Virus record (IMG/VR): IMGVR_UViG_3300034272_001354
Location: 1-64,000 of that record
DNA: 64,000 bases
Source of the DNA: a virus
Strand: one strand, 5' to 3'
In this document: positions 1 to 58,703 of the stretch, one piece after another
Layout of the letters: each line of letters begins with the position of its first letter
Numbering within the stretch: position 1 is the first letter of the stretch
Position numbers and translations under genes: made by a program
The notes under the pieces: generated by a model
Seen by the model: only the letters and a program-made list of their open reading frames with translations
What the model was told of the DNA's origin: nothing
Database searches by the model: none

Positions 1-2440
1 CCTGAAGAACCTGAAGTTCCACTAGAACCTGAAGTCCCTGAAGAACCACTTGTTCCATCAATACCACTAGAACCTGATGTCCCTGAAGAACCACTTGTTC
101 CTGATGTTCCACTTGAACCACTTGTTCCATCAATACCACTTGAACCTGATGTTCCCGAAGAACCTGAAGTTCCACTTGTGCCTGATGAACCTGAAGTACC
201 ACTAGAACCTGAAGTCCCTGAAGAACCACTTGTTCCTGAAGTCCCTGAAGAACCACTTGTACCATCTATACCGCTAGAACCTGATGTTCCACTAGAACCA
301 CTTGTCCCACTTGAACCTGATGTTCCTGATGAACCGCTAGTTCCATCAATACCACTTGAACCTGAAGTTCCCGAAGAACCTGAAGTTCCCGAAGAACCTG
401 ATGTACCATCGATACCTGAAGAACCTGAAGTCCCACTTGTTCCTGACGAACCACTCGTACCTGAAGAACCCGAAGTTCCATCTACACCGCTTGAACCAGA
501 AGTTCCTGATGAACCTGAAGTACCATCAATACCACTAGACCCTGAAGTCCCTGATGAACCACTTGTACCATCTATACCGCTAGAACCTGATGTCCCGCTA
601 GAACCTGATGTCCCACTAGAACCACTTGTACCTGAAGAACCTGAAGTTCCACTTGTTCCTGATGAACCTGAAGTTCCACTTGTTCCTGATGAACCTGATG
701 TTCCACTAGAACCTGATGTCCCACTTGTACCTGATGAACCGCTAGTTCCATCAATACCACTTGAACCAGAAGTCCCTGATGAACCACTTGTACCATCTAT
801 ACCGCTAGAACCTGATGTCCCGCTAGAACCTGATGTCCCACTAGAACCACTTGTACCTGAAGAACCTGATGTCCCTGAAGAACCGCTAGTTCCATCAATA
901 CCACTTGAACCTGAAGTTCCCGAAGAACCTGAAGTTCCCGAAGAACCTGATGTACCATCGATACCTGAAGAACCTGAAGTTCCACTTGTACCACTAGAAC
1001 CACTTGTACCTGATGAACCACTTGTTCCTGAAGTCCCTGAAGAACCACTTGTCCCATCTATACCGCTAGACCCTGATGTTCCCGAAGAACCGCTTGTTCC
1101 CGAAGAACCACTTGTTCCTGAAGAACCTGATGTTCCATCTATACCACTAGAACCGGATGTTCCTGAAGAACCTGAAGAACCGCTTGTACCGTCTATACCA
1201 CTAGAACCTGACGTTCCTGACGAACCACTTGAACCTGACGTTCCTGATGTTCCGCTTGAACCTGATGTTCCTGATGAACCACTTGTTCCGTCTATACCTG
1301 AAGAACCGCTAGTTCCTGAAGAACCTGATGTTCCATCTATACCTGAAGAACCTGAAGTCCCTGAAGAACCTGATGTTCCTGAAGAACCTGATGTTCCCGA
1401 AGAACCTGATGTTCCATCTATACCACTAGAACCGGATGTTCCTGAAGAACCTGATGTTCCATCTATACCTGAAGAACCTGAAGTCCCTGAAGAACCACTT
1501 GAACCTGACGTTCCTGATGTTCCACTTGAACCTGATGTTCCTGATGAACCACTTGTTCCGTCTATACCTGAAGAACCGCTAGTTCCTGAAGAACCTGATG
1601 TTCCGTCTATACCTGAAGAACCTGATGTTCCTGAAGAACCACTTGAACCTGATGTGCCTGACGTTCCAGAAGAACCACTAGTACCTGAAGTACCTGAAGA
1701 ACCTGAAGTCCCTGATGAACCGCTTGTTCCATCTATACCTGAAGAACCTGATGTTCCACTAGACCCTGAAGTCCCTGATGTTCCTGATGAACCGCTAGTT
1801 CCATCTACACCTGAAGAACCCGATGTTCCTGATGAGCCACTTGTTCCATCAACACCTGATGAACCTGATGTTCCTGATGAGCCACTTGTTCCACTAGACC
1901 CTGAAGTTCCTGATGTTCCTGATGAACCACTTGTTCCGTCTATACCGCTTGAACCTGATGTTCCTGATGAACCACTAGTTCCATCTATACCACTAGACCC
2001 TGAAGTCCCAGACGAACCACTTGTTCCTGAAGAACCCGAAGTTCCTGACGAACCACTTGTTCCGTCTATACCTGAAGAACCTGATGTTCCTGATGAACCA
2101 CTAGTCCCTGAAGAACCACTTGTTCCTGAAGAACCTGAAGAACCACTTGTTCCTGATGTTCCTGATGAACCACTTGTACCATCTATACCACTAGACCCTG
2201 AAGTTCCTGACGAACCACTTGTTCCTGACGAACCACTTGTCCCTGAAGAACCACTTGTTCCTGAAGAACCTGATGTACCATTTGTTCCACTTGAACCACT
2301 TGAACCTGAAGTACCGTTTATACCTGAAGAGCCACTTGTCCCTGAAGAACCACTTGTCCCTGAAGAACCACTTGTTCCTGACGAACCTGATGTACCACTT
2401 GAACCTGAAGTCCCTGAAGAACCACTTGTTCCGGCAGTTC
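1..2440 (-). repeat. Degenerate 9-nt tandem repeat encoding GTS/GSS/GID triplets
   Basis: Continuous cctgaagaa/cctgatgtt/ccacttgtt/ccatctata units on the + strand. Confidence 0.95.
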
Positions 2441-3431
2441 CTGAAGTTGAAGTATACGCTACAGCCGCGACACCTACATTTTTTATATCAACAATAATTG
2501 AAGGTGCCGCAGGTATTAATGGTGATGTTTGACCACTAATTGCCGTTAATTGAACACCTGTTTTAGTTGCTGAAAACGCAATTTCAATATAATCTCCTTG
2601 ATTTAATTGAAGTATTGTTTGTATATATGGTAATGCTTTAATATTAGGGCTCGCAAAACCTTCAACACTATTTGTCCTGTCAACATTATTACCATTTATT
2701 TTTAACCAAACATTAACATCTAAATCACCATTAAATAGAGTTTTTTCAACCATTGGTGAAAACCCAATTTCATATATACCATTATATTGGATTGTAATTT
2801 TTGACCCATTAACAATTGAAATACCATTTTCTATTTCAACAGTATCATAAGTTACGATATATTCGGTATTTGCAGAAGTAGCAAATTGAGTTTGAGAACT
2901 ACTATATGTTGCATAATAGTTAGCGACACCTATACCTGATGTCCCTGACGAACCACTTGTCCCTGATGAACCACTAGTTCCATCTATACCACTAGACCCT
3001 GAAGTTCCTGAAGAACCTGACGTTCCTGATGAACCACTTGTTCCGTCTATACCCGAAGAACCTGATGTTCCTGAAGTACCGGCTTGAGCAATTAAACCCC
3101 AATTGAAATTGGTGTCCGGAGCACCTCCACCTGATGGTATTGTTGTTGTTGCAAGATATGAACTACCATTATAATAGACAACATCTCCTTCAATATAATT
3201 AATTGAAGATGACCAAGTCCCTTTCCAAATAAAACTTTTTCCGTCAATACCGGAAGTTCCACTTGTACCTGATGAGCCAGAAGTTCCCGCACTAAATTGT
3301 GCAGTTAAGGCTGAATAATATATGTAATTTGTCTGTCCGGTAGGTACCAGGTCATAGTTTACTATAACTAAAAGAGATTCCGGAAATGCCGAAAACGCTT
3401 GAGGTAACTGTGAAATAGGTATATTTGCCAT
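1..3431 (-). CDS. Collagen-like (Gly-X-Y: GTS/GSS/GID) fibre protein, partial, runs off the window end; contains a CBM-like motif and a C1q/BclA-like domain
   Basis: ATG at 3431 reads MANIPISQLPQAF..., then WKGTWSSSINYIEGDVVYYNGSSY, a beta-rich domain (KITIQYNGIYEIGFS...VWLKING...LQLNQGDYIEI) and about 810 aa of Gly-every-third-residue repeats in frame to position 1; TATTTAT motif upstream. Confidence 0.85.
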   Translation of the reverse strand, partial: MANIPISQLPQAFSAFPESLLVIVNYDLVPTGQTNYIYYSALTAQFSAGTSGSSGTSGTSGIDGKSFIWKGTWSSSINYIEGDVVYYNGSSYLATTTIPSGGGAPDTNFNWGLIAQAGTSGTSGSSGIDGTSGSSGTSGSSGTSGSSGIDGTSGSSGTSGSSGTSGIGVANYYATYSSSQTQFATSANTEYIVTYDTVEIENGISIVNGSKITIQYNGIYEIGFSPMVEKTLFNGDLDVNVWLKINGNNVDRTNSVEGFASPNIKALPYIQTILQLNQGDYIEIAFSATKTGVQLTAISGQTSPLIPAAPSIIVDIKNVGVAAVAYTSTSGTAGTSGSSGTSGSSGTSGSSGTSGSSGTSGSSGTSGSSGINGTSGSSGSSGTNGTSGSSGTSGSSGTSGSSGTSGSSGTSGSSGIDGTSGSSGTSGTSGSSGSSGTSGSSGTSGSSGTSGSSGIDGTSGSSGTSGSSGTSGSSGTSGSSGIDGTSGSSGTSGSSGIDGTSGSSGTSGTSGSSGTSGSSGTSGSSGVDGTSGSSGTSGSSGVDGTSGSSGTSGTSGSSGTSGSSGIDGTSGSSGTSGSSGTSGTSGSSGTSGTSGSSGSSGTSGSSGIDGTSGSSGTSGSSGIDGTSGSSGTSGSSGTSGTSGSSGSSGTSGSSGIDGTSGSSGTSGSSGIDGTSGSSGTSGSSGTSGSSGTSGSSGIDGTSGSSGTSGSSGIDGTSGSSGTSGSSGTSGTSGSSGSSGTSGSSGIDGTSGSSGSSGTSGSSGIDGTSGSSGTSGSSGTSGSSGTSGSSGIDGTSGSSGTSGTSGSSGTSGSSGTSGTSGSSGIDGTSGSSGTSGSSGTSGSSGIDGTSGSSGTSGSSGTSGSSGTSGSSGTSGSSGIDGTSGSSGTSGSSGIDGTSGSSGTSGTSGSSGTSGSSGTSGTSGSSGTSGTSGSSGTSGSSGTSGSSGTSGSSGIDGTSGSSGTSGSSGIDGTSGSSGTSGSSGVDGTSGSSGTSGSSGTSGTSGSSGIDGTSGSSGTSGSSGTSGSSGIDGTSGSSGTSGSSGTSGSSGTSGSSGIDGTSGSSGTSGTSGSSGTSGSSGTSGSSGTSGTSGSSGTSGSSGIDGTSGSSGTSGTSGSSGTSGSSGIDGTSGSSGTSGSSGTSGSS

Positions 3432-34911: not shown

Positions 34912-35589
34912 ATGAAAAGAGTAGTTAAATTATCAGAATCTAAATTAACTGAATTAGTTAAACGAATTATGTCTGAACAAGATAGTGAAAGATATATGTT
35001 TTTTAGTAATTTAGAACAAATTCATAGACAAACAGGTTTATTATTAGAATTAAATAAAAACACTGTTGAAGGTATTTTAGATGGTGGACACGATTGGGCT
35101 CAAGACCACGTATCAACCGCAAAAGAAAGCCTTGACCAAGTTTTTGATTTTATGATGAATGAAACTAAAAATGAAGACAATATAACTGTTTTAGAACAAG
35201 ATTATTCTTCAGACACTGAAAGACCTACAAGTGACAGAGAACGTCAAGTAAAGTCCTTATTTGGTGATAAATATGGACAGTATATTCCTAACGATGTTAT
35301 TAGATATATAAGAAAGAGTCCTGCTCAATTCATTAAGAAAATCTATCAAATGTACGGAGACAAGGTTTATGATTATCTTGATAAAGCAAAAAGTCAAAGT
35401 AATGATGAGGTAGTTTCTGAAGGTAAAAAGAAACCCGGTACTAAATTATGTGCTCGTGGTAAAGCGGCTGCTAAATCAAAATTTAAAGTTTATCCTTCAG
35501 CTTATTCAAACGGCTTTGCGGTTCAAGTTTGTAAAGGAACTAAAGCAGGGTTAGACGGTCAAAAGAGGTGTTCATCACCATATTGTTAA
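34912..35589 (+). CDS. Leader-bearing multi-module protein (putative internal head protein)
   Basis: MKRVVKLSESKLTELVKRIMSEQ leader; C-terminal AKSKFKVYPSAYSN module. Confidence 0.65.
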   Translation: MKRVVKLSESKLTELVKRIMSEQDSERYMFFSNLEQIHRQTGLLLELNKNTVEGILDGGHDWAQDHVSTAKESLDQVFDFMMNETKNEDNITVLEQDYSSDTERPTSDRERQVKSLFGDKYGQYIPNDVIRYIRKSPAQFIKKIYQMYGDKVYDYLDKAKSQSNDEVVSEGKKKPGTKLCARGKAAAKSKFKVYPSAYSNGFAVQVCKGTKAGLDGQKRCSSPYC

Positions 35590-36860: not shown

Positions 36861-37091
36861 ATGGAACAACAACAAGAACTATTCGGAAAATTATTTAATA
36901 CAATCCCATTGTACAACGAAGACCATTTAGATGTCCTACTATCAACAATGGATAAAGAACAATCAATCTATATCCTAACACAAGCAGTTAGTTTTGCATT
37001 TCATTCAGGGATATTTTCATTGGGGGAATCTGAAATCATCTCAAAATCAATTAGAACTTTAAATAAAGTTGAAAAAAATGTTGTAGAGTAA
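36861..37091 (+). CDS. Hypothetical protein
   Basis: 76-aa ORF. Confidence 0.7.
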   Translation: MEQQQELFGKLFNTIPLYNEDHLDVLLSTMDKEQSIYILTQAVSFAFHSGIFSLGESEIISKSIRTLNKVEKNVVE

Positions 37092-37102
37092 AAAATAATA
37101 AT

Positions 37103-37110
37103 TACATTTG
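37103..37110 (+). promoter_or_regulatory. Bacteroidota-type -7 box
   Basis: TACATTTG with TTG about 22 nt upstream. Confidence 0.5.
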
Positions 37111-37127
37111 TAAAAAATATTTATATT

Positions 37128-37382
37128 ATGAAAAAATTATTAATTATCTTGTTATTATTAGTTAGTGGTTTGTCGTTTTCTCAAGAAAAGAAAAAAGTTT
37201 CAACCAAAAAAATAGACCAAACCGTTACTCAAAAAATGGACTCCTTATCTAAAGTTTATAAAGTAAAAGTTATTGGCTCATATAAAATAACCCATAACGA
37301 TGTTTATGTTGAAGGAATTGTTTATGAAGACAAATCAGGAAATGTCCACGATAAAGAAACTAAAAGAATTAAAATTAATTAA
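37128..37382 (+). CDS. Small secreted protein (Sec/SPI signal peptide)
   Basis: MKKLLIILLLLVSGLSFS|Q. Confidence 0.75.
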   Translation: MKKLLIILLLLVSGLSFSQEKKKVSTKKIDQTVTQKMDSLSKVYKVKVIGSYKITHNDVYVEGIVYEDKSGNVHDKETKRIKIN

Positions 37383-37392
37383 AAAAGGGTGA

Positions 37393-38523
37393 TTAAATAC
37401 AACCTCCCTCTATTTTAAATCCTGTTGACCCCATTCCAGGACCCCCAATAGGTGCATAAACAAAAAATAAATTATTACCTTTACTAGTATCATATACTAA
37501 TTCATATGGTGTAGTTCTTTTTTCATAAAGTACGAACTCTCTAACACCATTATTATATTGCTCTAATAAATTAACGAATCCTAAAGAAACTTCACCAGTA
37601 CCTGTATTAGCTTGTAATATTGACTTTAATTTTTTCAAATCATTTTTGTTAATTAAATCTAATGAAATATTTTTTAATTTTTCGTTTTTAAAAATCAATG
37701 AAACTAATTCATCTATTGATGAAACATTTTTAGTAATTATTTTACTACCACTAACTGCAGGGGATTTTTGGTTATATATTTTAGTTAAACTATCAACCCA
37801 CGCAGGTATATAATTTATTATATCATCCAAATATAATTCTGTAGATACATATCCGGTGTCTAATGTTATTTGTTTTTGAGTATCAGTAACAATTAATCTA
37901 TCAGGCATTGTTCCCGTATCAAAACTCAATTTACCTTTATCATTTAAGTCATTTTGATATTTTGAAGGTAAAATTGCAATATAATTATTCGATTTAGAAC
38001 CTTGAACTCCTTCATAGTCAATGTTAAAGTTACACTTCTCAGTAGATTTTTCTGCGGATAAATTTAAAGTTACATATTGATATTTTGTATAGTCAGGGTG
38101 TTTAGAACCTTTGGTTTCATCCCACTCAGGACCTTGAGCTCCTAAATTATTAATTTTAATAGATATTTTATCACCTAATTTTGATTTTATATATTTTTCA
38201 ACTTCCGAAGCTCTTAATTTGGATAAATCTCCTGAGTTTAACCCTACACCTTCATTTGGAACTTTCGATTCTGATGAATTAATCACGATAGTGTTAAATG
38301 AACCTTTACCGGATTTTAAATAATCATTAATTTGTTTTATTGCATTATCAATTTCAGTAGTATTATTTAACTCATATTCACCACTAGGAAACGAATTTGA
38401 AATATTAAATTTTATAGGTTCTGTAATATCTTCTTTAATTAAATAAAGTTTTTTAGTAGCACTTTCATGAAGTCCTAAAATTCTATTTTTTTCTTCACTT
38501 GAAATTTCAAATAAATTTTTCAT
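37393..38523 (-). CDS. Leader-bearing protein with OmpA_C-like domain
   Basis: ATG at 38523, MKNLFEISSEEKNRILGLHES; FPSGEYEL...SSESKVPN...LSKLRASEVEKYI. Confidence 0.6.
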   Translation of the reverse strand: MKNLFEISSEEKNRILGLHESATKKLYLIKEDITEPIKFNISNSFPSGEYELNNTTEIDNAIKQINDYLKSGKGSFNTIVINSSESKVPNEGVGLNSGDLSKLRASEVEKYIKSKLGDKISIKINNLGAQGPEWDETKGSKHPDYTKYQYVTLNLSAEKSTEKCNFNIDYEGVQGSKSNNYIAILPSKYQNDLNDKGKLSFDTGTMPDRLIVTDTQKQITLDTGYVSTELYLDDIINYIPAWVDSLTKIYNQKSPAVSGSKIITKNVSSIDELVSLIFKNEKLKNISLDLINKNDLKKLKSILQANTGTGEVSLGFVNLLEQYNNGVREFVLYEKRTTPYELVYDTSKGNNLFFVYAPIGGPGMGSTGFKIEGGCI

Positions 38524-38551
38524 AATTTTTCTTTTAATATAAATATAAGAT

Positions 38552-38585
38552 AAAAAAAAAGAGGACAAATATTTGTCCTCTTTTT
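38552..38585 (-). terminator. Terminator after MCP
   Basis: AAAAAGAGGACAAAT/ATTTGTCCTCTTTTT inverted repeat. Confidence 0.85.
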
Positions 38586-38605: not shown

Positions 38606-40522
38606 TTATCTCAATTCTCTTAAGTCAAATGTTCTAACACCATCAACGGTAATTCTTCCGTAAAAACGGTTATTTACCATCTTTTTCGCGTAACGAGTCA
38701 TTATACCTTTAATCGGTGTAAAGTTGAATGGGTTGTACATTGTAGGTGTTAATTGTAATGGTACATACGGAGCGTAAATGTATCCTGTGTCTAACAATGA
38801 TGTTCCTTTGTGTCCAATTAACACTTGGTTAGCTGGGAAGTAAGGGTCACGGTAAACTTGGTAACGACCTGCTAATGTACCTACTCTTTCAATACCCATG
38901 TTGTATTGGTCTTGCTCAGGAGACGCATTAGATACGTGGAAGTACTCTAAATCATCAAAGATAGCTGAAACTTCAGAAGAAACAACAATCCAGTTTGCTC
39001 CACCTCTTAATGTAGATTTGTGGATTTGTGCAGACAATTGGTTGATTGCTGTAATTAATGTTTGGTTCCAATCTTTTTGAGTATAAGAAGTTGTTTGAGA
39101 AATTCTTCTCCAACCATTGTAATCCCAACGTAAGTTCCATGCTGCACCTTTACGTAAATCTCTTAAGATTTCACGGTCGATTTCAGCCGCAACTTGTTCA
39201 GATAATAAAGCTGTTAATTCAGCTTCAGCATCGATGTTGTGGAAAGCCGCAACGTCTTGAGCTAACTCAGGAGACCATTGTGCTCTTAATTTTCTTTCTG
39301 TAACAGATACAGTAACTGAATCTAAATCGAAAGAAACCTCACCGATTTTATCTTCAAATTCTAACTCTTCGTAACGTCTGAAAGCCGCTGCGAATGAAGT
39401 TCCTGATACCGCAGTTTCGATAGTAGTACCTGTGTAACCATCTAAAGATGTAGAATCACAATCAGCACATACCGGACAAGATAAATCAACTTCTAACCAA
39501 ATACATCCATCAGCGTCACAAACATTTTTGAATGAACCACCGTTACCTGTATTAGATGCTGTACCCGCTGGGTTACCTGAAGGGAAGTAAGTTTGAGTAG
39601 TATTACCATATTTCACAATACCTCTACCATAGATTTGAGTCACAACTCTAAATAATAAAGAACCTGTACTAACTGTACATGGTGAAGTTGAAGAAACAGT
39701 TAAACCATTTCCTGTGTAAACGATTAAGTCAGATAAGAATGATTCAGTATCCATTTCGTTACCATCAGGTCCGATTAATTTTCCTGCACCTGTATCAGCA
39801 AAACCACACATTTTAATGATAACTTTTCTTGTGTTACCTGAAGCAATAACTGCTGCTCCATCAGTTGTTCCTGAAATGTTAGCATCAACTAAAACTCCAC
39901 CTGTCCATTTTTGGATAGTTGTAGTAGCAGTGATTGCTGACCAACGACCTTTAGAATAATCAAATAATCCTGGAGGGTCTAATTGAGCCTCATTTCCTTC
40001 ATAGAATAAATCATAAAGATTTTTTTCGTATACAGGGTTATAAGTTCCTGAACCTGTAGTGTAACCTGCATTTGGATTACCACCTGTACCGTTAGGTGAA
40101 GGTAATGTACCATCATTGTAGTTACCCGGAGCTCCAACAGGTGCATAGTGCTCACCTGAATATTGTCCTGCAATACCATCTTTATATCCTTGGATTTTTG
40201 GTACAAAGTAGAATAATTTACCGATTGGTAAGTTCATAGCTTGTACAGAAACGATGTCATTCGCTAATAATTTAGAGAATACTCTTCTTACGATAGGAAA
40301 TACAACAGTTTCGAATGAACCTGAAGACCCGTCAGAAGTTGCTTCGTTTATTAAGAAAGACGCTTGGTTCTCATATAACTGAGCTACGTTTTCTCTTAAG
40401 TGACCTTTAAGACCTTCTAGAAATCCTAATTTGTCCCATTTATTAATTGTGTCCTCTTTAATAACTTTAAGGTGTTTTAACCCGATGTTACCAACTAGAC
40501 CTGATTCTAATAATGCTCCCAT
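38606..40522 (-). CDS. Major capsid protein (T4 gp23-like)
   Basis: VRRVF..LLANDIVSVQAM..P.G, RKLRAQWSPELAQD, EIDREI, YAPYVPL, GIMTRY. Confidence 0.95.
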   Translation of the reverse strand: MGALLESGLVGNIGLKHLKVIKEDTINKWDKLGFLEGLKGHLRENVAQLYENQASFLINEATSDGSSGSFETVVFPIVRRVFSKLLANDIVSVQAMNLPIGKLFYFVPKIQGYKDGIAGQYSGEHYAPVGAPGNYNDGTLPSPNGTGGNPNAGYTTGSGTYNPVYEKNLYDLFYEGNEAQLDPPGLFDYSKGRWSAITATTTIQKWTGGVLVDANISGTTDGAAVIASGNTRKVIIKMCGFADTGAGKLIGPDGNEMDTESFLSDLIVYTGNGLTVSSTSPCTVSTGSLLFRVVTQIYGRGIVKYGNTTQTYFPSGNPAGTASNTGNGGSFKNVCDADGCIWLEVDLSCPVCADCDSTSLDGYTGTTIETAVSGTSFAAAFRRYEELEFEDKIGEVSFDLDSVTVSVTERKLRAQWSPELAQDVAAFHNIDAEAELTALLSEQVAAEIDREILRDLRKGAAWNLRWDYNGWRRISQTTSYTQKDWNQTLITAINQLSAQIHKSTLRGGANWIVVSSEVSAIFDDLEYFHVSNASPEQDQYNMGIERVGTLAGRYQVYRDPYFPANQVLIGHKGTSLLDTGYIYAPYVPLQLTPTMYNPFNFTPIKGIMTRYAKKMVNNRFYGRITVDGVRTFDLRELR

Positions 40523-42475: not shown

Positions 42476-43201
42476 TTAATATCCTAAATAATCGTTTAAT
42501 TTTTTCATTAAGTCAAGTGATTTATTTCCTGAATCACCAACATGTCTTTCAATACTCATTTTTTTCTCTTCTTCTAAGTTCTCGTCATACAGATGTTTGT
42601 CATCTTTATTTAAGAATAGATACGCTCCCGGAGTTGAAGGTGAGGACACCAAGTCAAAACAAATTAATTCAAAATCGTCTTGTACTTCATTTTGTTCACC
42701 AATCTTTTTAAGAGAACCTACACCTCTTGACGATATACCTAAAGTAACACCTTGTCTTAAGTAATTTGCTGCCAAATCTCCTTTGGTTGAACAAATACCT
42801 CTTTCGTGGTATCCCGGTGATGTCAATAATTTAATCTTTCCCATTAGGACATTACCTTCCCACCATACTTCGGTGATTGCGTGAGAAACTCTATCTAAAT
42901 CAATTAAAGATGATTCCGGGTGATTTAACTCTGAAAGAGCTGTACCCTTTTTAATCATTTTTTTATAATTATCAGCTTCTCTTTTTAATATACGTTCAGG
43001 GTATAATCGACCATTTCTATTTGGTGTATCATATTTTTGTAATACAGCATAAAATTCAAATGGTTTTGAGTGGTCTAACATTTCATTAGATTCTCTTATT
43101 AATGTTTCGTTACGATTATCCTTTGGATTAATATATCCGGCATCGTATTCAACTAATATACCTTTTCCTGATTCGTTCGGTTGTAATATTCTTAAACTCA
43201 T
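42476..43201 (-). CDS. Prohead maturation protease (T4 gp21-like)
   Basis: NRNGRLYP, ELNHP, VSH, GISSRGVGS, DLVSSPS. Confidence 0.92.
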   Translation of the reverse strand: MSLRILQPNESGKGILVEYDAGYINPKDNRNETLIRESNEMLDHSKPFEFYAVLQKYDTPNRNGRLYPERILKREADNYKKMIKKGTALSELNHPESSLIDLDRVSHAITEVWWEGNVLMGKIKLLTSPGYHERGICSTKGDLAANYLRQGVTLGISSRGVGSLKKIGEQNEVQDDFELICFDLVSSPSTPGAYLFLNKDDKHLYDENLEEEKKMSIERHVGDSGNKSLDLMKKLNDYLGY

Positions 43202-44719: not shown

Positions 44720-46588
44720 TCAATCATTTAAGATTTTATCCAATTCTTTTTCCATATCACCTAAAGAATTTCTTGCTCGAGATAAATCAATGTAAGAATC
44801 GTCTTCAGTTAGATTACCACTTTCCAATAAGATATTCAAATTATCTCGTTTGACTGATTCAGGAGTTATTTCAGCTTCACCACCCGGTGCCGGTGCTCCA
44901 CCCGGTTCAGGTGCTCCACCCGGTTCAGGTTCTCCACCTAAGTCAAGTCCTCCACCTAAGTCAGATTCAAGACCTCCTCCACCTCCTCCACCAGGTGGTG
45001 GGGCAGGAGCAGCCGCTCCAACGGCCGTAGTTCCGGATTTACTCGCGTATAATTTATCTATAGTATCAAATACACCCGTATGAGTAATTATGGTTGCGGT
45101 ATTAGTTAATTCCGCACCAACCGCTTTTTCAATACGTTGTTGTTGTAAATCTAATTTAATTTCTTCATCAGAGAATCCTAATACGTGTTTCTTAGCCCAT
45201 GTAACAGATACCGGAGCGATACCTTCGATAGCCGCAACAGCATCTTTATACAATAAAATTTTCTCTTTCCAAATATCAATTTTTAATAAATCTGCTTGAG
45301 ATGATGGGTTTGTAAGAGCCAATGTAAAGTTTGACAATTCATCCTCAAATCCTAATAAGAATAAATGAATAATTGCAACTTTATTTAATTCGGCAATCAT
45401 AGATTTTTGAATTCTATTAATTGTTCTTGCGAAACGAATATCCATTAAAGATAAATTTTTACCATCACCCGTTACTTCCTCAAAACCTAAAAACGCTTTA
45501 GGAACACGAAGTGCTGTTAATAATTTCTTTTGGATATATTCAATATCGGCAATCTCCGCCAAATTTTGTGCTCCCGGTAAGGTATCAATTGGACTTGGTG
45601 CCGCAGGGTCACGAACAGGAATAAAGTAATCTTGGTCAACAGCCATTTGATTAAATCTCATATCTACATTCCCTGTTTGAGAATCAACCACTTGACTTCT
45701 TTTAAATTTGTTAGCCACACGTTGTACATATGGTTCAACATCTTTATCGTCCATATTACCAACATAAACTTTAAATACACGTCTTTCAGGAGCTCTTGAA
45801 GTTCTATAAATCAACATCGCATCTTCTGAAAGTAATAATTGTTTCCAAATACGTCTCGCTTTCTCCAACATAGAAGTACCATAAGGAAGTTTTCTATCAT
45901 CACCTAATAATCTAAAATGGGCAATCTCCCATGAATTGAATTCCATGTCTTTAATTTTCCATTTGAAACGTAATCCTTTACTATCCGCAGGTTCTTCAAC
46001 ATTTGCTGATTTCGCAGCCATACCTCTCTCCAAACGTTCTATTTCAATGTTTGGTAATTGCATACACCCAACAATGCCTTTTTCCGCATCCAATTTTAGA
46101 TACACGAAGTTATCTCCATATTTACAAGTATTTCTTGTCCACATAGGTAAATTAGTATTTAAATCTAATACGTTGTTAAATAAGTCAGTTAAGATTCCTT
46201 TAATTCTTTTTGATTCAGAATAAATCTGTAACATATATCCATTTTGGTCAACAGTTGTTGATTCTTCACCATAGATATCCAAAGCGGCAGAAATTTCAGG
46301 AGTATACTCCATCGATTCATAATCATAAAATGAAGCTAAACGAGTTGGTTCATAATATACCGCTTGAGTATATAAATTACTTTCAATTTTAGTCCATTGA
46401 TTGGCTAGATAATAAGTTTGTTGTGCCTGTAATTTTTCTCTCTCGTATTCGGCTTTAGACGTGGTTTTTAATAATTCCTTCTTATCTAACTGATATACGG
46501 GATAATCTTGATTCAATAACGAATTTGGTCCAAATGCTTTGGATAACCTTTGCCAAACTGTTAAATCATTATTTTGATTGTTTTCCAT
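44720..46588 (-). CDS. Portal protein (T4 gp20-like)
   Basis: EDAMLIYRTSRAPERRVF.VYVGN, DYFIP.R, IDTLPG, ALRVPK. Confidence 0.93.
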   Translation of the reverse strand: MENNQNNDLTVWQRLSKAFGPNSLLNQDYPVYQLDKKELLKTTSKAEYEREKLQAQQTYYLANQWTKIESNLYTQAVYYEPTRLASFYDYESMEYTPEISAALDIYGEESTTVDQNGYMLQIYSESKRIKGILTDLFNNVLDLNTNLPMWTRNTCKYGDNFVYLKLDAEKGIVGCMQLPNIEIERLERGMAAKSANVEEPADSKGLRFKWKIKDMEFNSWEIAHFRLLGDDRKLPYGTSMLEKARRIWKQLLLSEDAMLIYRTSRAPERRVFKVYVGNMDDKDVEPYVQRVANKFKRSQVVDSQTGNVDMRFNQMAVDQDYFIPVRDPAAPSPIDTLPGAQNLAEIADIEYIQKKLLTALRVPKAFLGFEEVTGDGKNLSLMDIRFARTINRIQKSMIAELNKVAIIHLFLLGFEDELSNFTLALTNPSSQADLLKIDIWKEKILLYKDAVAAIEGIAPVSVTWAKKHVLGFSDEEIKLDLQQQRIEKAVGAELTNTATIITHTGVFDTIDKLYASKSGTTAVGAAAPAPPPGGGGGGGLESDLGGGLDLGGEPEPGGAPEPGGAPAPGGEAEITPESVKRDNLNILLESGNLTEDDSYIDLSRARNSLGDMEKELDKILND

Positions 46589-47169: not shown

Positions 47170-48939
47170 TTATCTTGTACCAAATAACCAGCCATATTTC
47201 ATATAATCGTCTCGACTTATATTTCCATTACTAAATTGACCAATTCTTTCTCGAGTATTTGGTATTACGGGGTTAAACGCTAATGATTCACTTACATTGT
47301 CATTATTAGTGACCGCCCAAGAATCAATCATCGCTTTAGTATGTTCAGTAACTTTAGTTAATTTACTAAACGATGATTCAGCAACGTAGGTTGCCATCGC
47401 AATAGACATGATTAAATCGTCGTGATGACCTTTTTGGTGGTCAGGTCTACCATTCATATAAATAAATGTATTCATTTCATTATACAAACGAGAACTATAA
47501 ATTCTAAATCCATGTCTCATTACTTCTTCAAACGAAGCAATAATTTGAACTCTTTTATTATTAAAGTTTATTCCCGGAATTTTCTCCGCAGCTTTTGGGT
47601 CGTATTTCCATTTGTTTGCCGTGTCAACACCATCAACATATAAATCTTTATAATTCATTTCTTGAAGTTTTCTTGATGTTGAAACACCCATACCTCCAGT
47701 GATATCTATTACCACAAAACAAGAATAGTTTGTCGCCCATTTGTGACAAATTTCCGCCATAGTGTCCGGAGGTAATTTACCCACATACTCAGCGACTTGT
47801 TCTTGAGTATCAAAATCGACAATTTGGAATGAACTAAAATCTTCAGAATCCCCACGAGAAACGTCGACACCCATAATGTATTTATGTCCAATCACAGGTT
47901 CTTTCCAAATCCAAAGAGCATTCCCCATTAACTTTGATATAGGTTCAAGAATCATATTTTCACGAATCTTTTGCATCATAAGAGAATCAAATACGTTATC
48001 CCCCGAACCTAAGAAGTTACATTCTAACTCTTGGGATACTTTACGTTTATCGTATTTTAATTTCTTAACCATCGCCTCAAACCAAGATGAACAAGGTTTA
48101 TACCCGGCATCCATAATAATTCTTAACTCTTTATAATTTCTATTTTCATAAGGTATTTTAGACCAATCAAGAAATTCATCTGGTTTATAATCTTCTTTAT
48201 TCAATAGGAAATGAATTATATCATCAGTTTTTACCAAGAATAAATCTTTAGTATAACGTGGGTCACGATACCAAAACATCTCGGTAATTTTGAAGTCATT
48301 CATATTACGTAATGCTTGGTCATATATTTCGTAGTAAATTGGGTCGTATCCGTTTGGAGTTGAAACAACAATTACTTTACCCCCCGTAGATAGGGACGCC
48401 ATACAAGCAGCCCAAAAGTCACTGTCAGCTTCGATAAACGCCGCCTCGTCAAATACAAGTATTGTTGGTGTAAACCCACGCAAGGCATCTTTCGATGTCG
48501 CAACGGCTTTAACCTCACAACCATTTGTTAATTTATAATGTTTTTGGGAATTTTTTGCTTTATCAAAATCTACACCTGTCCAAGACGGCCATTGAGCAAC
48601 GAACGCTTTTATTTTATTAGCCATCTCCAGTGAAGTATCCAACTTATTGGCGATAATCAATATTTTTTCGGGGGTTTCTTTTCTTGCGAATACTAACTTT
48701 CGTGACATCCAAGCCGCGGTAACTGTTGATACCCCGGCCTGTCTGTACTTTAATGCAATGTTTTCATTGTATTCTTCGTAATCTTCTAATAAAGATAATT
48801 GGTCAGGAAAAAGTTCTAATGGAACATATTTTTTAACCGTATTATCATATGTTTCTAAATACGTTCTAAGTGCGTATTCAACATCTCGATTACATTTTAC
48901 GTATTCAATTAATACTTGTTCTTTTGTTAAATTTGACAT
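47170..48939 (-). CDS. Terminase large subunit (T4 gp17-like)
   Basis: KYRQAGVST, VFDEAAF, VSTPNG, QELECNF, GVDVSRG, HDDLIM. Confidence 0.93.
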   Translation of the reverse strand: MSNLTKEQVLIEYVKCNRDVEYALRTYLETYDNTVKKYVPLELFPDQLSLLEDYEEYNENIALKYRQAGVSTVTAAWMSRKLVFARKETPEKILIIANKLDTSLEMANKIKAFVAQWPSWTGVDFDKAKNSQKHYKLTNGCEVKAVATSKDALRGFTPTILVFDEAAFIEADSDFWAACMASLSTGGKVIVVSTPNGYDPIYYEIYDQALRNMNDFKITEMFWYRDPRYTKDLFLVKTDDIIHFLLNKEDYKPDEFLDWSKIPYENRNYKELRIIMDAGYKPCSSWFEAMVKKLKYDKRKVSQELECNFLGSGDNVFDSLMMQKIRENMILEPISKLMGNALWIWKEPVIGHKYIMGVDVSRGDSEDFSSFQIVDFDTQEQVAEYVGKLPPDTMAEICHKWATNYSCFVVIDITGGMGVSTSRKLQEMNYKDLYVDGVDTANKWKYDPKAAEKIPGINFNNKRVQIIASFEEVMRHGFRIYSSRLYNEMNTFIYMNGRPDHQKGHHDDLIMSIAMATYVAESSFSKLTKVTEHTKAMIDSWAVTNNDNVSESLAFNPVIPNTRERIGQFSNGNISRDDYMKYGWLFGTR

Positions 48940-53236: not shown

Positions 53237-53244
53237 TATCTTTG
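53237..53244 (+). promoter_or_regulatory. Bacteroidota-type -7 box
   Basis: TATCTTTG with upstream TTG. Confidence 0.65.
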
Positions 53245-53269: not shown

Positions 53270-53659
53270 ATGAAAAAATTAATCACCATTATTCTTTTTA
53301 TTTTTATTTCAAGTTTATCTTTTGGTCAACATGCAATAAAAGCCGGTAAATATTATGAATTAGATAAAGTGTTTACACGAGATTCCATATCAGTTAAATT
53401 ATTAATGGATACCTACAAATTAGATATCACTAAATTATCCGCTGTTAAATTTTTTGGGGAATTTGAGTTATCTGACAATTTACATCATAATTACTCTCAT
53501 TCAGAATACACATATATTTTAGAGAAAAAAACTGGAGTAGTTACATTAAAATCACTTAATTATAATGAAAATCTATTAAAACTTAATAAATACGTTATGG
53601 TTTTTTGTTTTGACGATAATACTACAGAGAAAAAAACTATCACCATTAAAATATTTTAA
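53270..53659 (+). CDS. Small secreted protein (Sec/SPI signal peptide)
   Basis: MKKLITIILFIFISSLSFG|Q. Confidence 0.75.
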   Translation: MKKLITIILFIFISSLSFGQHAIKAGKYYELDKVFTRDSISVKLLMDTYKLDITKLSAVKFFGEFELSDNLHHNYSHSEYTYILEKKTGVVTLKSLNYNENLLKLNKYVMVFCFDDNTTEKKTITIKIF

Positions 53660-53660
53660 T

Positions 53661-53689
53661 AAAAAAAAGGGTCTTTAAGACCCTTTTTT
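53661..53689. terminator. Bidirectional terminator
   Basis: AAAAAAGGGTCTT/AAGACCCTTTTTT between convergent genes. Confidence 0.8.
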
Positions 53690-54739
53690 AGTTATTTGTG
53701 GAAGTTTAATAATTAATCTTCTATTAGGTGCCGTTTGATTTTCATCTGTTACGTCAGGCCATTTTTTACCCTTAGCAAATTGGTCAGTTTCTCCAATACC
53801 TTTAGGTATAAAATTTAATTTAATTCCCGGTAAACTATTTTTAAGAAGTGAAGCAATTGTTTCTGCTCTTTTTTTAGATAAATCCATATTATAATCTTTT
53901 CTTTTTTGACCTGTTTTAAGTTTACCTTCAGGGTCTTCATCGATAGATGCTGATGATATTACTTCTACATCTCCTGTAGCATCAGAATAATTAGTTTTAA
54001 TTGATTTGATAAAATCTTTAAATTCTTGTTTAGCCTCATCTGTTAAATTAGTCTCATTAAATCTAAATGGACTTTCAATATTTAATTCAAATGGTGTATC
54101 TTCTGGTGTGTCTTCAGGTGTTTCAGGTGTAGGTTTATTTGAAAAATATTTAGCACTAGCACCAGGAAACAATTGTATTAAAATTCCATATCCTCCTTTT
54201 TTAACATACATTACCGGAGATATTGTATCATCTTTAGATTCTTCATATCTACCCTTTAATAAACTTAAGTCTTGTTTTATTATCTTTGCAGTGTAAAGTG
54301 TTGGTGAACCAACCTTTGATTTGTCGGTTGGAGATGGGAGTCTTCGGTCATTTGGTGCCATTGCAACAAATTTATAATCCATATTAGCATTTTGTAATGG
54401 TACTAAAGGCTCACCACCTACCGAAGATGAATAAAGGTCAGGCCAATATTTGTCAGTAAGTTCAAAATTTAAACCCCAACCATAATCTGAAACTAATTCT
54501 TTTGTTTTATAATTAACTTTAAAATTATATAAATCACCATTTACATATTTCCACTGTTGTCCATCAGCAACATCAACAATTGAATATAAGTAATTTTGAT
54601 TAATTTTAAAATAAAATTCACTTCCTAATTTATAAAAAGATTCATCAATTTCTTCTTCTTTTTCTTCTTGTTCTTGAAGAACTTTTTTAACTAAATTGTA
54701 TAATTCTGATTCTGTTAGTTTTATAATTTTTTTTCCCAT
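53675..54739 (-). CDS. Leader-bearing protein with C-terminal OmpA_C-like peptidoglycan-binding domain
   Basis: FRFNETNL...SAS...YNMDLSKKRAETI...GIGET...NRRLII; N-terminal KLTESELYNLVKKVLQEQ; no signal peptide. Confidence 0.8.
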   Translation of the reverse strand: MGKKIIKLTESELYNLVKKVLQEQEEKEEEIDESFYKLGSEFYFKINQNYLYSIVDVADGQQWKYVNGDLYNFKVNYKTKELVSDYGWGLNFELTDKYWPDLYSSSVGGEPLVPLQNANMDYKFVAMAPNDRRLPSPTDKSKVGSPTLYTAKIIKQDLSLLKGRYEESKDDTISPVMYVKKGGYGILIQLFPGASAKYFSNKPTPETPEDTPEDTPFELNIESPFRFNETNLTDEAKQEFKDFIKSIKTNYSDATGDVEVISSASIDEDPEGKLKTGQKRKDYNMDLSKKRAETIASLLKNSLPGIKLNFIPKGIGETDQFAKGKKWPDVTDENQTAPNRRLIIKLPQITKKGS

Positions 54740-58280: not shown

Positions 58281-58703
58281 TTATTTTTCAAAACTCATAA
58301 GAAACCTTTCAAATTCTTGTAAAATATTAGGTTTTGACAATAAAGGAAACTTTTTAGGTTCAATTGCTAATCCCATTCCGTGAATTTTATCTTTAGTTCC
58401 TACCTGACTAGGTTCTTTAACTTTTTTGGTTTTAACAATAGCATAATCAGGATTAAAAGTAACAAATAACGTTAATTTTTTTTCAGGTATATTTTTCATA
58501 AATTTTAATTCAGAACCCCCTGTTTCTATCGAATAATTAAGTTTTCTCAAAACTGAGTCTAACATTTGAGGTGTTACCTTTTTTTCTTTTTTAGGAGTAG
58601 GAGTTGGTACTCCCTGTTCAGAAATTACATTTTTTTTACCTGAGTGCATCTCAAGGATTCTATTTTTCTCATCTTGAGAAATGTCATTAAATAAATTTTT
58701 CAT
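58281..58703 (-). CDS. Leader-bearing hypothetical protein
   Basis: MKNLFNDISQDEKNRILEMHS leader shared with 37393..38523. Confidence 0.7.
   Translation of the reverse strand: MKNLFNDISQDEKNRILEMHSGKKNVISEQGVPTPTPKKEKKVTPQMLDSVLRKLNYSIETGGSELKFMKNIPEKKLTLFVTFNPDYAIVKTKKVKEPSQVGTKDKIHGMGLAIEPKKFPLLSKPNILQEFERFLMSFEK

Follow-up and report, generated by a model that had tools for sequence, protein, structure and literature searches.

A viral contig of 77 kb (IMG/VR record IMGVR_UViG_3300034272_001354) has in its first 64 kb (positions 1 to 64,000; hereafter the window) a cassette of two convergent genes directly behind a T4-type major capsid gene. One gene encodes P376, a protein of 376 amino acids (aa) with an N-terminal leader, an OmpA_C-like domain and an unassigned C-terminal domain, and the other encodes S84, an exported protein of 84 aa. 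We propose with moderate confidence, by analogy with phage T4, that P376 would be a capsid-targeted cargo delivered to the wall of the next host, and that S84 would be an early periplasmic partner that binds this cargo and brings about superinfection exclusion of the Spackle/gp5 kind. The proposal is built on what we observe of the gene anatomy, the folds, the promoter classes, the modularity of the leader, its linkage to the capsid gene, the peptidoglycan-directed payloads behind it and the conservation of the gene pairs.

P376 and its modular leader

The open reading frame (ORF) of P376 extends mechanically to 38595. Because the capsid-gene terminator and a late-type motif lie upstream of Met 38523 (Table 1), we take this Met as the real start, and because the terminator precedes it, P376 constitutes its own late transcription unit. 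The N-terminus is hydrophilic and has no signal peptide, nor is a cryptic signal peptide present behind the leader. A search for relatives of the protein returned 133 metagenomic homologues. In an AlphaFold2 model made from 53 sequences (predicted local distance difference test score, pLDDT, 84), the leader at aa 1-31 appears as a low-confidence helix.

A preliminary description of this DNA, made from its letters alone, had assigned an OmpA_C-like domain to the protein, which holds at the level of the fold and falls short at the level of sequence. Foldseek matched aa 32-158 to 4rha, OmpA, Pal, YfiB and MotB in the PDB with a probability of 1.0, and VIA aligned them to the wall anchor of type VI secretion systems (T6SS; 4b62) with Z 11.5 and a root-mean-square deviation of 2.8 over 114 residues. 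For P376 as a whole, VIA gave 29 chains at Z ≥ 8, and those listed were OmpA-like except for one Ena pilus match to the C-terminal domain. The match to Pfam PF00691 (E 3e-4; 21.5 bits) lies below the gathering cut-off of 27.2, and a PDB profile search with 53 family members found no chain at E ≤ 0.01. In OmpA and Pal, an Asp and an Arg (GHTD...LSxxRA) hold the diaminopimelate of peptidoglycan. L100 and R104 of this LSxxRA motif (LSKLRA in P376) are invariant in the 53 sequences, and the canonical D-S position is taken by an invariant E85-S86, in a register set by eye against the canonical motif. P376 shares the fold and the LSxxRA arginine with OmpA_C, Pal, MotB and TagL (PF00691; PDB 4b62, 5m38, 4rha). 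Unlike them, it stays below the Pfam threshold, has Glu for the canonical Asp, lacks a signal peptide, lipobox or membrane anchor, and is fused to a phage leader and an unassigned domain.

The C-terminal domain has an invariant P-D-R...D..Y motif and is bracketed by the only two cysteines of the protein, C164 and C375, both invariant. To judge from the sequence, these may form a disulfide staple, a hint of life outside the cytoplasm. A search of the ESM Atlas with this domain gave only unnamed viral clusters at chance-level scores, a Pfam Imm30 match on P376 (E 0.02) was discarded as noise, and PHROGs, PADLOC and NCBIfam returned nothing useful. Among 185,579 prokaryote species genomes, the only P376 homologue was on one 2.5-kb contig of a metagenome-assembled genome; as this contig is the same phage cassette, bacterial homologues offer no functional hint. 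In 50,697 phage records, tblastn yielded no significant match for P376, for the second cargo P354 (Table 1), for the OmpA half of P354 or for the leader. The best matches of the leader there, to microvirus pilot proteins (E about 1), were set aside as chance-level.

We investigated the leader by scanning IMG/VR at the DNA level with a degenerate pattern for its core motif, [ED]E[KR][NK]RIL.[LM]HE. All but two of the 150 matches (148) lay within 22 aa of an N-terminal Met, in 107 distinct proteins, and conservation extended beyond the pattern (..SATK..YL.E). Behind the leader, the IMG/VR loci hold 29 payload families. A leader profile of 35 positions was also compared with 1.84 billion cluster representatives (clusters at 50% identity). 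The clusters matched numbered 1,480 at E ≤ 0.001, 332 of them at E ≤ 1e-10; nearly all of the best 150 matches start at residue 1-3. Leaders are also exchanged on a given payload: P354 has a KLTESEL leader in the window and an EKNRIL leader in the orthologues of relatives, at a payload identity of 76%. The leader is a modular, swappable N-terminal tag.

Leader genes are linked to the capsid gene. Counting only genes found by the leader alone and with at least 3 kb of upstream sequence (n = 68), 51 lie no more than 6 kb downstream of a T4-type capsid-gene homologue on the same strand, a proximity that cannot be chance in genomes of ~300 kb. Between the capsid gene and a conserved 76-aa gene lies a slot whose cargo set changes from one relative to another (the P376 type alone; P354 and P376 types; P354 type with a 507-aa form; PG_binding_1 types; others), and near-complete genomes have 4-6 leader genes each. 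In T4, the prohead protease gp21 cuts after L/I-x-E, and a capsid-targeting sequence (CTS) of 10 aa suffices for packaging (PMC9026906, PMC8442874, PMC3012670). The first 36 aa of P376 contain four L/I-x-E sites, at aa 4-6, 18-20 (LHE), 29-31 (IKE) and 33-35, and the window encodes an S77 prohead protease that would be the enzyme to remove the leader. With prohead-protease-type sites on the tag and an S77 enzyme in the phage, the two are compatible at the level of sequence only. The T4 CTS reads MKTYQEFIAE (PMC8442874), and the first ten residues of P376, MKNLFEISSE, agree with it at M1, K2, E6, E10 and in the hydrophobic positions, although ten residues cannot give significance. The putative head-targeting leader of the preliminary description gains support from its N-terminal place, its exchangeability, its L/I-x-E sites, its usual position downstream of the capsid gene and the presence of the S77 gene, and not from any significant similarity to the T4 CTS.

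The payloads share a theme. A Pfam scan covered 87 leader proteins of the loci plus 98 independent cluster representatives, and almost all payload families at a meaningful level in it were peptidoglycan-directed (OmpA, PG_binding_1, PG_binding_3, LysM, YkuD/Tlde1 and TseH), a far broader spectrum than the peptidoglycan anchoring first claimed. No cytoplasm-directed enzyme family was found in this set, the other Pfam matches being single, weak and unrelated, and many payloads match no assigned family. Tlde1 and TseH are families of antibacterial T6SS effectors with periplasmic immunity proteins (PMC9638812, PMC12994826).

The exported partner, its pairing and its promoter

The N-terminus of S84 has an MKK n-region, a hydrophobic core of 12 residues and an SFS↓Q cleavage site, which conforms to the glutamine rule (Q-rule) for signal peptidase I substrates of Bacteroidetes (PMC5837995). 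This signal peptide, the TAnnTTTG box and TATTTAT motif ahead of it, and the 10-nt gap to a convergent late-type gene without a signal peptide had all been described before and can be read directly and exactly in the sequence. Mature S84 (65 aa) is basic (pI 9.6) and has no cysteine. The AlphaFold2 model of S84 (pLDDT 84) consists of the signal helix and a helix at aa 26-44 packed on a three-stranded sheet at aa 47-82. Fold searches were uninformative (Foldseek E > 0.2; VIA Z < 4), and family searches of Pfam, PHROGs, PADLOC and NCBIfam gave no match except a sub-threshold NCBIfam match over the signal-peptide region. In a crude signal-peptide screen of the whole contig, the only two ORFs of the signal peptidase I type in the window were S84 and the partner gene of the second cassette. 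The hairpin in the gap between S84 and P376 has a free energy of -10.7 kcal/mol (z -1.7) on the minus strand and is no better than shuffles on the plus strand.

The 48 homologues of S84 are all of similar size, and their best-conserved parts are the signal peptide and a DSLSK.Y motif, while the C-terminal sheet evolves fastest. Mean pairwise identity in the alignment is 0.68 for the signal peptide against 0.38 for the C-terminal sheet, the reverse of the usual pattern. Recombination between flanks that are themselves conserved, or a constraint acting on the DNA, may explain this odd conservation.

Whether the pairs hold together as units had been fixed beforehand as the first of several tests of the pairing, and they do. 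Among 82 distinct leader proteins with enough sequence downstream, 40 are abutted by a convergent ORF whose product has a signal peptide, lipobox or membrane segment, the gaps being -26 to +37 nt. When payloads and partners are clustered separately, their families map almost one to one: for 20 of the 25 distinct members of the P376 family, counting the pair of the window, the partner belongs to the S84 family, the P354 family keeps its 129-aa partner family wherever the sequence allows, and at least six further cargo families have a partner family of their own. No partner family goes with the PG_binding_1 families and some others. In a 507-aa form, the leader and the OmpA domain are retained, the C-terminal part is unrelated and rich in cysteine, and the partner is an unrelated lipoprotein of 85 aa. 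For Tlde1-type cargo, a co-directional exported protein of 168 aa lies one or two genes downstream. Some relatives' cargo arrays end with larger exported partners of 172-204 aa (L038 7623-8153, minus strand; L036 4200-4718, minus; L112 9170-9772, plus).

Partner and cargo genes differ in their upstream motifs, and the split into early and late genes that had been suggested for them is backed by these statistics. Of 37 distinct partner genes, 30 have the Bacteroidota promoter motif TAnnTTTG (PMC9723704, PMC6847099) at 22-36 nt upstream, often with TTTG ~20 nt further upstream, and the partner genes without it directly follow another gene. Of 81 distinct regions upstream of cargo genes, none has this box; 45 have the exact ATATTTAT and others have GTATTTAT. 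The late-type motif ATATTTATA also precedes P140 and the scaffold, protease, tail and other structural genes of the window, while TAnnTTTG boxes there precede non-structural genes such as SmpB. More generally, (A/G)TATTTAT(A/T) stands 11-38 nt upstream of the starts of many structural genes (window 28926-59631). Its sequence, similar to a T4 TATAAATA in reverse, makes it a candidate for the late promoter of this phage clade; at spacings of 11-13 nt its transcripts would be leaderless or nearly so.

We also compared the trees of cargo and partner for 19 pairs. Distances in the OmpA or C-terminal domain of the cargo correlated with those in mature regions of the partner (Spearman 0.53-0.88), and the partner followed the OmpA domain no less closely than the C-terminal domain. 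Since both cargo domains are tracked, co-evolution is inseparable from shared descent in these data.

The phage, its head module and further leader genes

The source is a large, uncultured, T4-like phage from a lake, infecting Bacteroidota. Promoter boxes and signal peptides in the window are of the Bacteroidota kind, the cultured phage with the most similar capsid protein is Flavobacterium phage immuto (43% identity), and near-complete relatives have genomes of 233-309 kb. More than 90% of the window's sampled words are present in each of 14 lake or freshwater metagenome runs from 14 studies; the phage is common in lake metagenomes. In metatranscriptome contigs from four RNA runs, capsid and scaffold genes were covered, mostly those of relatives, and the cassette was almost bare; as such contigs cannot demonstrate absence, this carries no information on expression.

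The same architecture had been reported to recur at 53.2-54.7 kb, and a second cassette is indeed found there, with the exported partner at 53270-53659 (plus) and the cargo P354 at 53675-54739 (minus). The OmpA domain of P354 exceeds the PF00691 cut-off (30.7 bits), and it stands at the C-terminus, behind a leader of another type than that of P376. The contig has two genes with the EKNRIL leader, P376 and P140. P140 has the leader MKNLFNDISQDEKNRILEMH, a PTPTP linker and no exported partner, and its neighbourhood in relatives (L118) is an array of leader genes that includes a Tlde1-type gene. The second leader type, K(L/V)(T/S)ES(E/K)L..L(V/I)K(K/R)(V/I), occurs on P354 and on a 225-aa protein (34912-35589, plus strand) whose Cys-rich C-terminus matches phrog_27331; this C-terminal motif occurs in genomes of Pelagibacter phages and cyanophages too. 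Relatives (L108, L118) have the two leader types mixed within single gene arrays.

On the side of the slot away from the capsid gene, the 76-aa gene (product MEQQ..LFGKLFNTIPLY...) marks the boundary in most related loci, and several of the partner genes that lack their own promoter box come directly after it. Elsewhere in the window, positions 1-3431 have 47% GC against ~30%, with Gly/Ser/Thr-rich collagen-like repeats on the minus strand and many spurious overlapping ORFs; the product of these repeats is probably a fibre protein. Beyond the window, the contig (G000:C1) has small ORFs with lipoprotein signals at 64752-64925 (plus, LTSC) and 67685-67894 (minus, LVSC), with no adjoining leader genes.

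Table 1. Coordinates of the cassettes, the head genes and related features in the window.
Feature	Position	Strand	Remarks
Conserved 76-aa gene	36861-37091	+	Far border of the variable cargo slot, opposite the capsid gene
Host-type -7 promoter box TAnnTTTG, TACATTTG	37103-37110	+	25 nt 5' of the S84 ATG
Late-type motif ATATTTATA	37117-37125	+	Overlaps the S84 5' region; ends 2 nt before the ATG
S84, exported partner, 84 aa	37128-37382	+	Signal peptide aa 1-19 (37128-37184), cleavage SFS↓Q
Intergenic gap between the convergent stops of S84 and P376	37383-37392		10 nt; spanned by a modest minus-strand hairpin and U-run
P376, 376 aa	37393-38523	-	Start Met 38523 (MKNLF...); convergent with S84
P376 C-terminal domain, aa 163-376	37396-38037	-	Beta-sandwich with helical insert, pLDDT > 90
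P376 OmpA_C-like domain, aa 32-158	38050-38430	-	Predicted peptidoglycan-binding
P376 leader, aa 1-31	38431-38523	-	MKNLF..EEKNRILGLHE..YLIKE; candidate capsid-targeting propeptide
Late-type promoter-like motif ATATTTATA	38538-38546	-	Its core, TATTTAT, begins 22 nt before the start codon of P376
Intrinsic terminator of the major capsid gene	38556-38585	-	13-bp stem, dG -18.5 kcal/mol, z -5.8
T4-type major capsid protein (Gp23 family)	38606-40522	-	PF07068, E 1e-74; directly upstream of P376
T4-type prohead core serine protease (Peptidase_S77)	42476-43201	-	PF03420, E 6.9e-24
T4-type portal	44720-46588	-
T4-type large terminase	47170-48939	-
Cassette 2 partner, exported, 129 aa	53270-53659	+	SFG↓Q; behind TATCTTTG at 53237-53244
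Cassette 2 cargo P354, 354 aa	53675-54739	-	KLTESEL leader, unassigned N-domain, PETPED linker, C-terminal OmpA domain
P140, 140 aa, basic (pI 9.8)	58281-58703	-	Third leader-gene entry, EKNRIL type; behind a terminator and ATATTTATA

Proposed delivery and exclusion weighed against other readings

In the mechanism we propose, P376 would be made late from its ATATTTATA-type promoter behind the capsid-gene terminator and, having no export signal, would be docked on the prohead scaffolding core by its leader of ~31 aa, in the manner of the T4 CTS. The S77 prohead protease would then cut the leader off after the Glu of an L/I-x-E site, at LHE (aa 18-20) and IKE (aa 29-31). At the next infection, mature P376 would exit the particle and reach the periplasm, where its OmpA-like domain would grip peptidoglycan and its cysteine-bracketed C-terminal domain may act on or bind a component of the envelope. 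Upon genome entry, host RNA polymerase would read S84 from the canonical Bacteroidota promoter, and the product would be exported by Sec and cut by signal peptidase I at SFS↓Q. Mature cargo and mature partner are complementary in charge (pI 5.4 versus 9.6), and the basic S84, filling the periplasm, would bind the acidic cognate cargo of later phages of the same type. Binding may block the entry of these phages or prevent damage from outside, as proposed here after Spackle with gp5 and Imm with the tape-measure protein.

Two T4 systems serve as precedents. The internal proteins of T-even phages have only the tag in common (PMC3012670, PMC9026906, PMC5694885), and IPI, IPII, IPIII and Alt likewise carry a short N-terminal tag with L/I-x-E sites on otherwise unrelated proteins, with variable cargo, a conserved tag and a T4-type capsid protein, portal and S77 protease. 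The T4 tag differs from the longer leader found here in having 10 aa rather than ~31, without significant sequence similarity; the putative cargo here is large and acidic and is directed at peptidoglycan, whereas that of T4 is small, basic and cytoplasm-directed. Its genes also differ from those of the T4 internal proteins in lying directly behind the capsid gene, many with a dedicated exported partner. For the partner, the precedents are Spackle (gp61.3), which inhibits the tail lysozyme gp5 and thereby causes superinfection exclusion (PMC7677548, PMC7650644), and Imm, which binds the tape-measure protein (preprint 10.64898/2026.03.06.709160). Here too a small, early, envelope-exported phage protein would be matched to a late wall-directed protein of the same phage that a superinfecting particle would bring along, with the timing read from the type of promoter. 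Spackle is a disulfide-bonded helical bundle (PMC7677548), whereas S84 is predicted to be a helix on a three-stranded sheet, without cysteine and without homology to it, and P376, unlike gp5, has no lysozyme or other hydrolase fold. Unlike Spackle and Imm, the pairs described here are linked tail to tail, with several unrelated versions in a genome that are swapped between relatives.

Several points weigh against this proposal. We infer packaging, leader cleavage, periplasmic delivery, partner binding and exclusion from the genes only, the L/I-x-E motif is very short, and the leader does not resemble the T4 CTS to a significant degree. The internal proteins of T4, small and basic, go into the cytoplasm; at 345 aa and pI 5.4, mature P376 is neither small nor highly basic, and we know of no route to the periplasm for head proteins of contractile phages. 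Its C-terminal domain shows no recognisable catalytic or toxic fold, VIA giving only common jelly-roll-like matches (Z 7-8), so that the term effector is not established for P376; of the effector/immunity pairing first suggested, the cargo-specific families of exported partners stand and no enzymatic fold is recognisable in this domain. For about half of the leader proteins no exported partner abuts, which makes a partner no general requirement, and the co-variation of cargo and partner is inseparable from shared descent and physical linkage. The ATATTTATA motif at the 5' region of S84 suggests that S84 may possibly be read late too, and expression in the early phase only is thus not certain. 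Finally, neither the tblastn of phage records nor the immuto locus, where no such cassette lies behind the capsid gene, yielded a cultured relative with the cassette.

A more far-reaching version, which we put forward tentatively, has the particle used like a T6SS. One leader would load a changeable peptidoglycan-directed set, Tlde1- and TseH-type enzymes included, for delivery into the envelope, and matched early exported partners would immunise the infected cell, giving a polymorphic, cognate-specific exclusion or kin recognition. The likeness to Tlde1/Tldi1, TseH/TsiH and polymorphic toxins lies in a conserved N-terminal delivery module with variable payloads, among them Tlde1/YkuD and TseH homologues, in an adjoining exported protein or lipoprotein in the presumed compartment of the payload, and in the proposed delivery by a contractile machine. 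Unlike the T6SS systems, these genes belong to a lytic phage, and the partner is convergent, separately promoted and of another timing class instead of being co-transcribed downstream; nor can a toxic activity be inferred for P376.

Cargo effectors of the T6SS ride on Hcp or VgrG. By the same token, the cargo could ride in the tail (in the tube lumen, on the tape measure or on the baseplate spike) and be deposited in the periplasm by contraction, with the partner still neutralising it. We consider this unlikely, although several observations speak for it: all recognisable payloads are periplasm-directed, homologues of the T6SS effectors Tlde1 and TseH included, and mature P376 is acidic and large, unlike T4 internal proteins. 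A route from contractile tail to periplasm is also known, and the two exclusion proteins of T4 are each directed at a protein that the tail delivers (PMC7677548; preprint 10.64898/2026.03.06.709160). However, the leader genes cluster behind the capsid gene and away from the baseplate and tail genes, the L/I-x-E sites and the S77 protease suit processing in the head, and no phage leader of this kind for loading a tail is known.

Another account, to which we give a low probability, has the leader proteins unpackaged. They would be late, lysis-stage wall-binding accessories or a functional spanin substitute, reaching the wall once the holin opens the inner membrane, with the small protein as a periplasmic or outer-membrane partner or a regulator, for instance an antiholin-like timer. 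Phage endolysins have no signal peptide and often carry PG_binding_1, LysM or OmpA-like modules such as those found behind the leader, the cargo genes have the late promoter motif, and some partners are lipoproteins or membrane proteins, like o-spanins and antiholins. On the other hand, proteins released by a holin have no need of a shared, swappable N-terminal leader, and 4-6 leader genes with unrelated payloads per genome, at a locus that is hypervariable among close relatives, are unexpected for a housekeeping lysis function. P376 has no hydrolase fold, and the early host-type promoter of the partner would be odd for a component of lysis.

The small exported protein could instead be a sensor of the cargo of superinfecting phages that delays lysis; T-even lysis inhibition requires superinfection of cells already infected (PMC6832632). 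This is quite improbable in our view. The pairing, the promoter classes and the compartment fit it as they fit the proposed exclusion, and the data do not separate sensing from neutralisation, but no holin or antiholin was identified adjoining the cassettes, and S84 has no membrane anchor after cleavage. Lastly, it is very unlikely indeed that the adjacency has no functional meaning and that the small genes are independent morons at a convenient terminator, co-travelling by linkage: shared descent would explain the mirror-tree correlations equally well and half of the leader genes have no such neighbour, yet each of at least eight unrelated cargo families has retained an exported neighbour family of its own, abutting tail to tail within -26 to +37 nt, the neighbour changes with the cargo type at the same slot, and both ORFs of the signal peptidase I type from our screen of the window are such neighbours.

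Our literature search found no paper describing an arrangement of leader cargo and exported partner. If the proposed delivery and exclusion are true, the capsid-targeting principle of T4 would extend far beyond the T-even phages, into a very large group of abundant freshwater and marine phages of Bacteroidota, in which the cargo would target the cell wall instead of cytoplasmic defences. The leader would be a portable packaging tag for Bacteroidota phages, and the cassettes would provide a set of small periplasmic binders without a known fold along with dozens of unassigned wall-directed domains to characterise. Exclusion of the Spackle and Imm kind could then be modular, evolving as linked cassettes of cargo and partner, and competition between phages would become readable from sequence alone.

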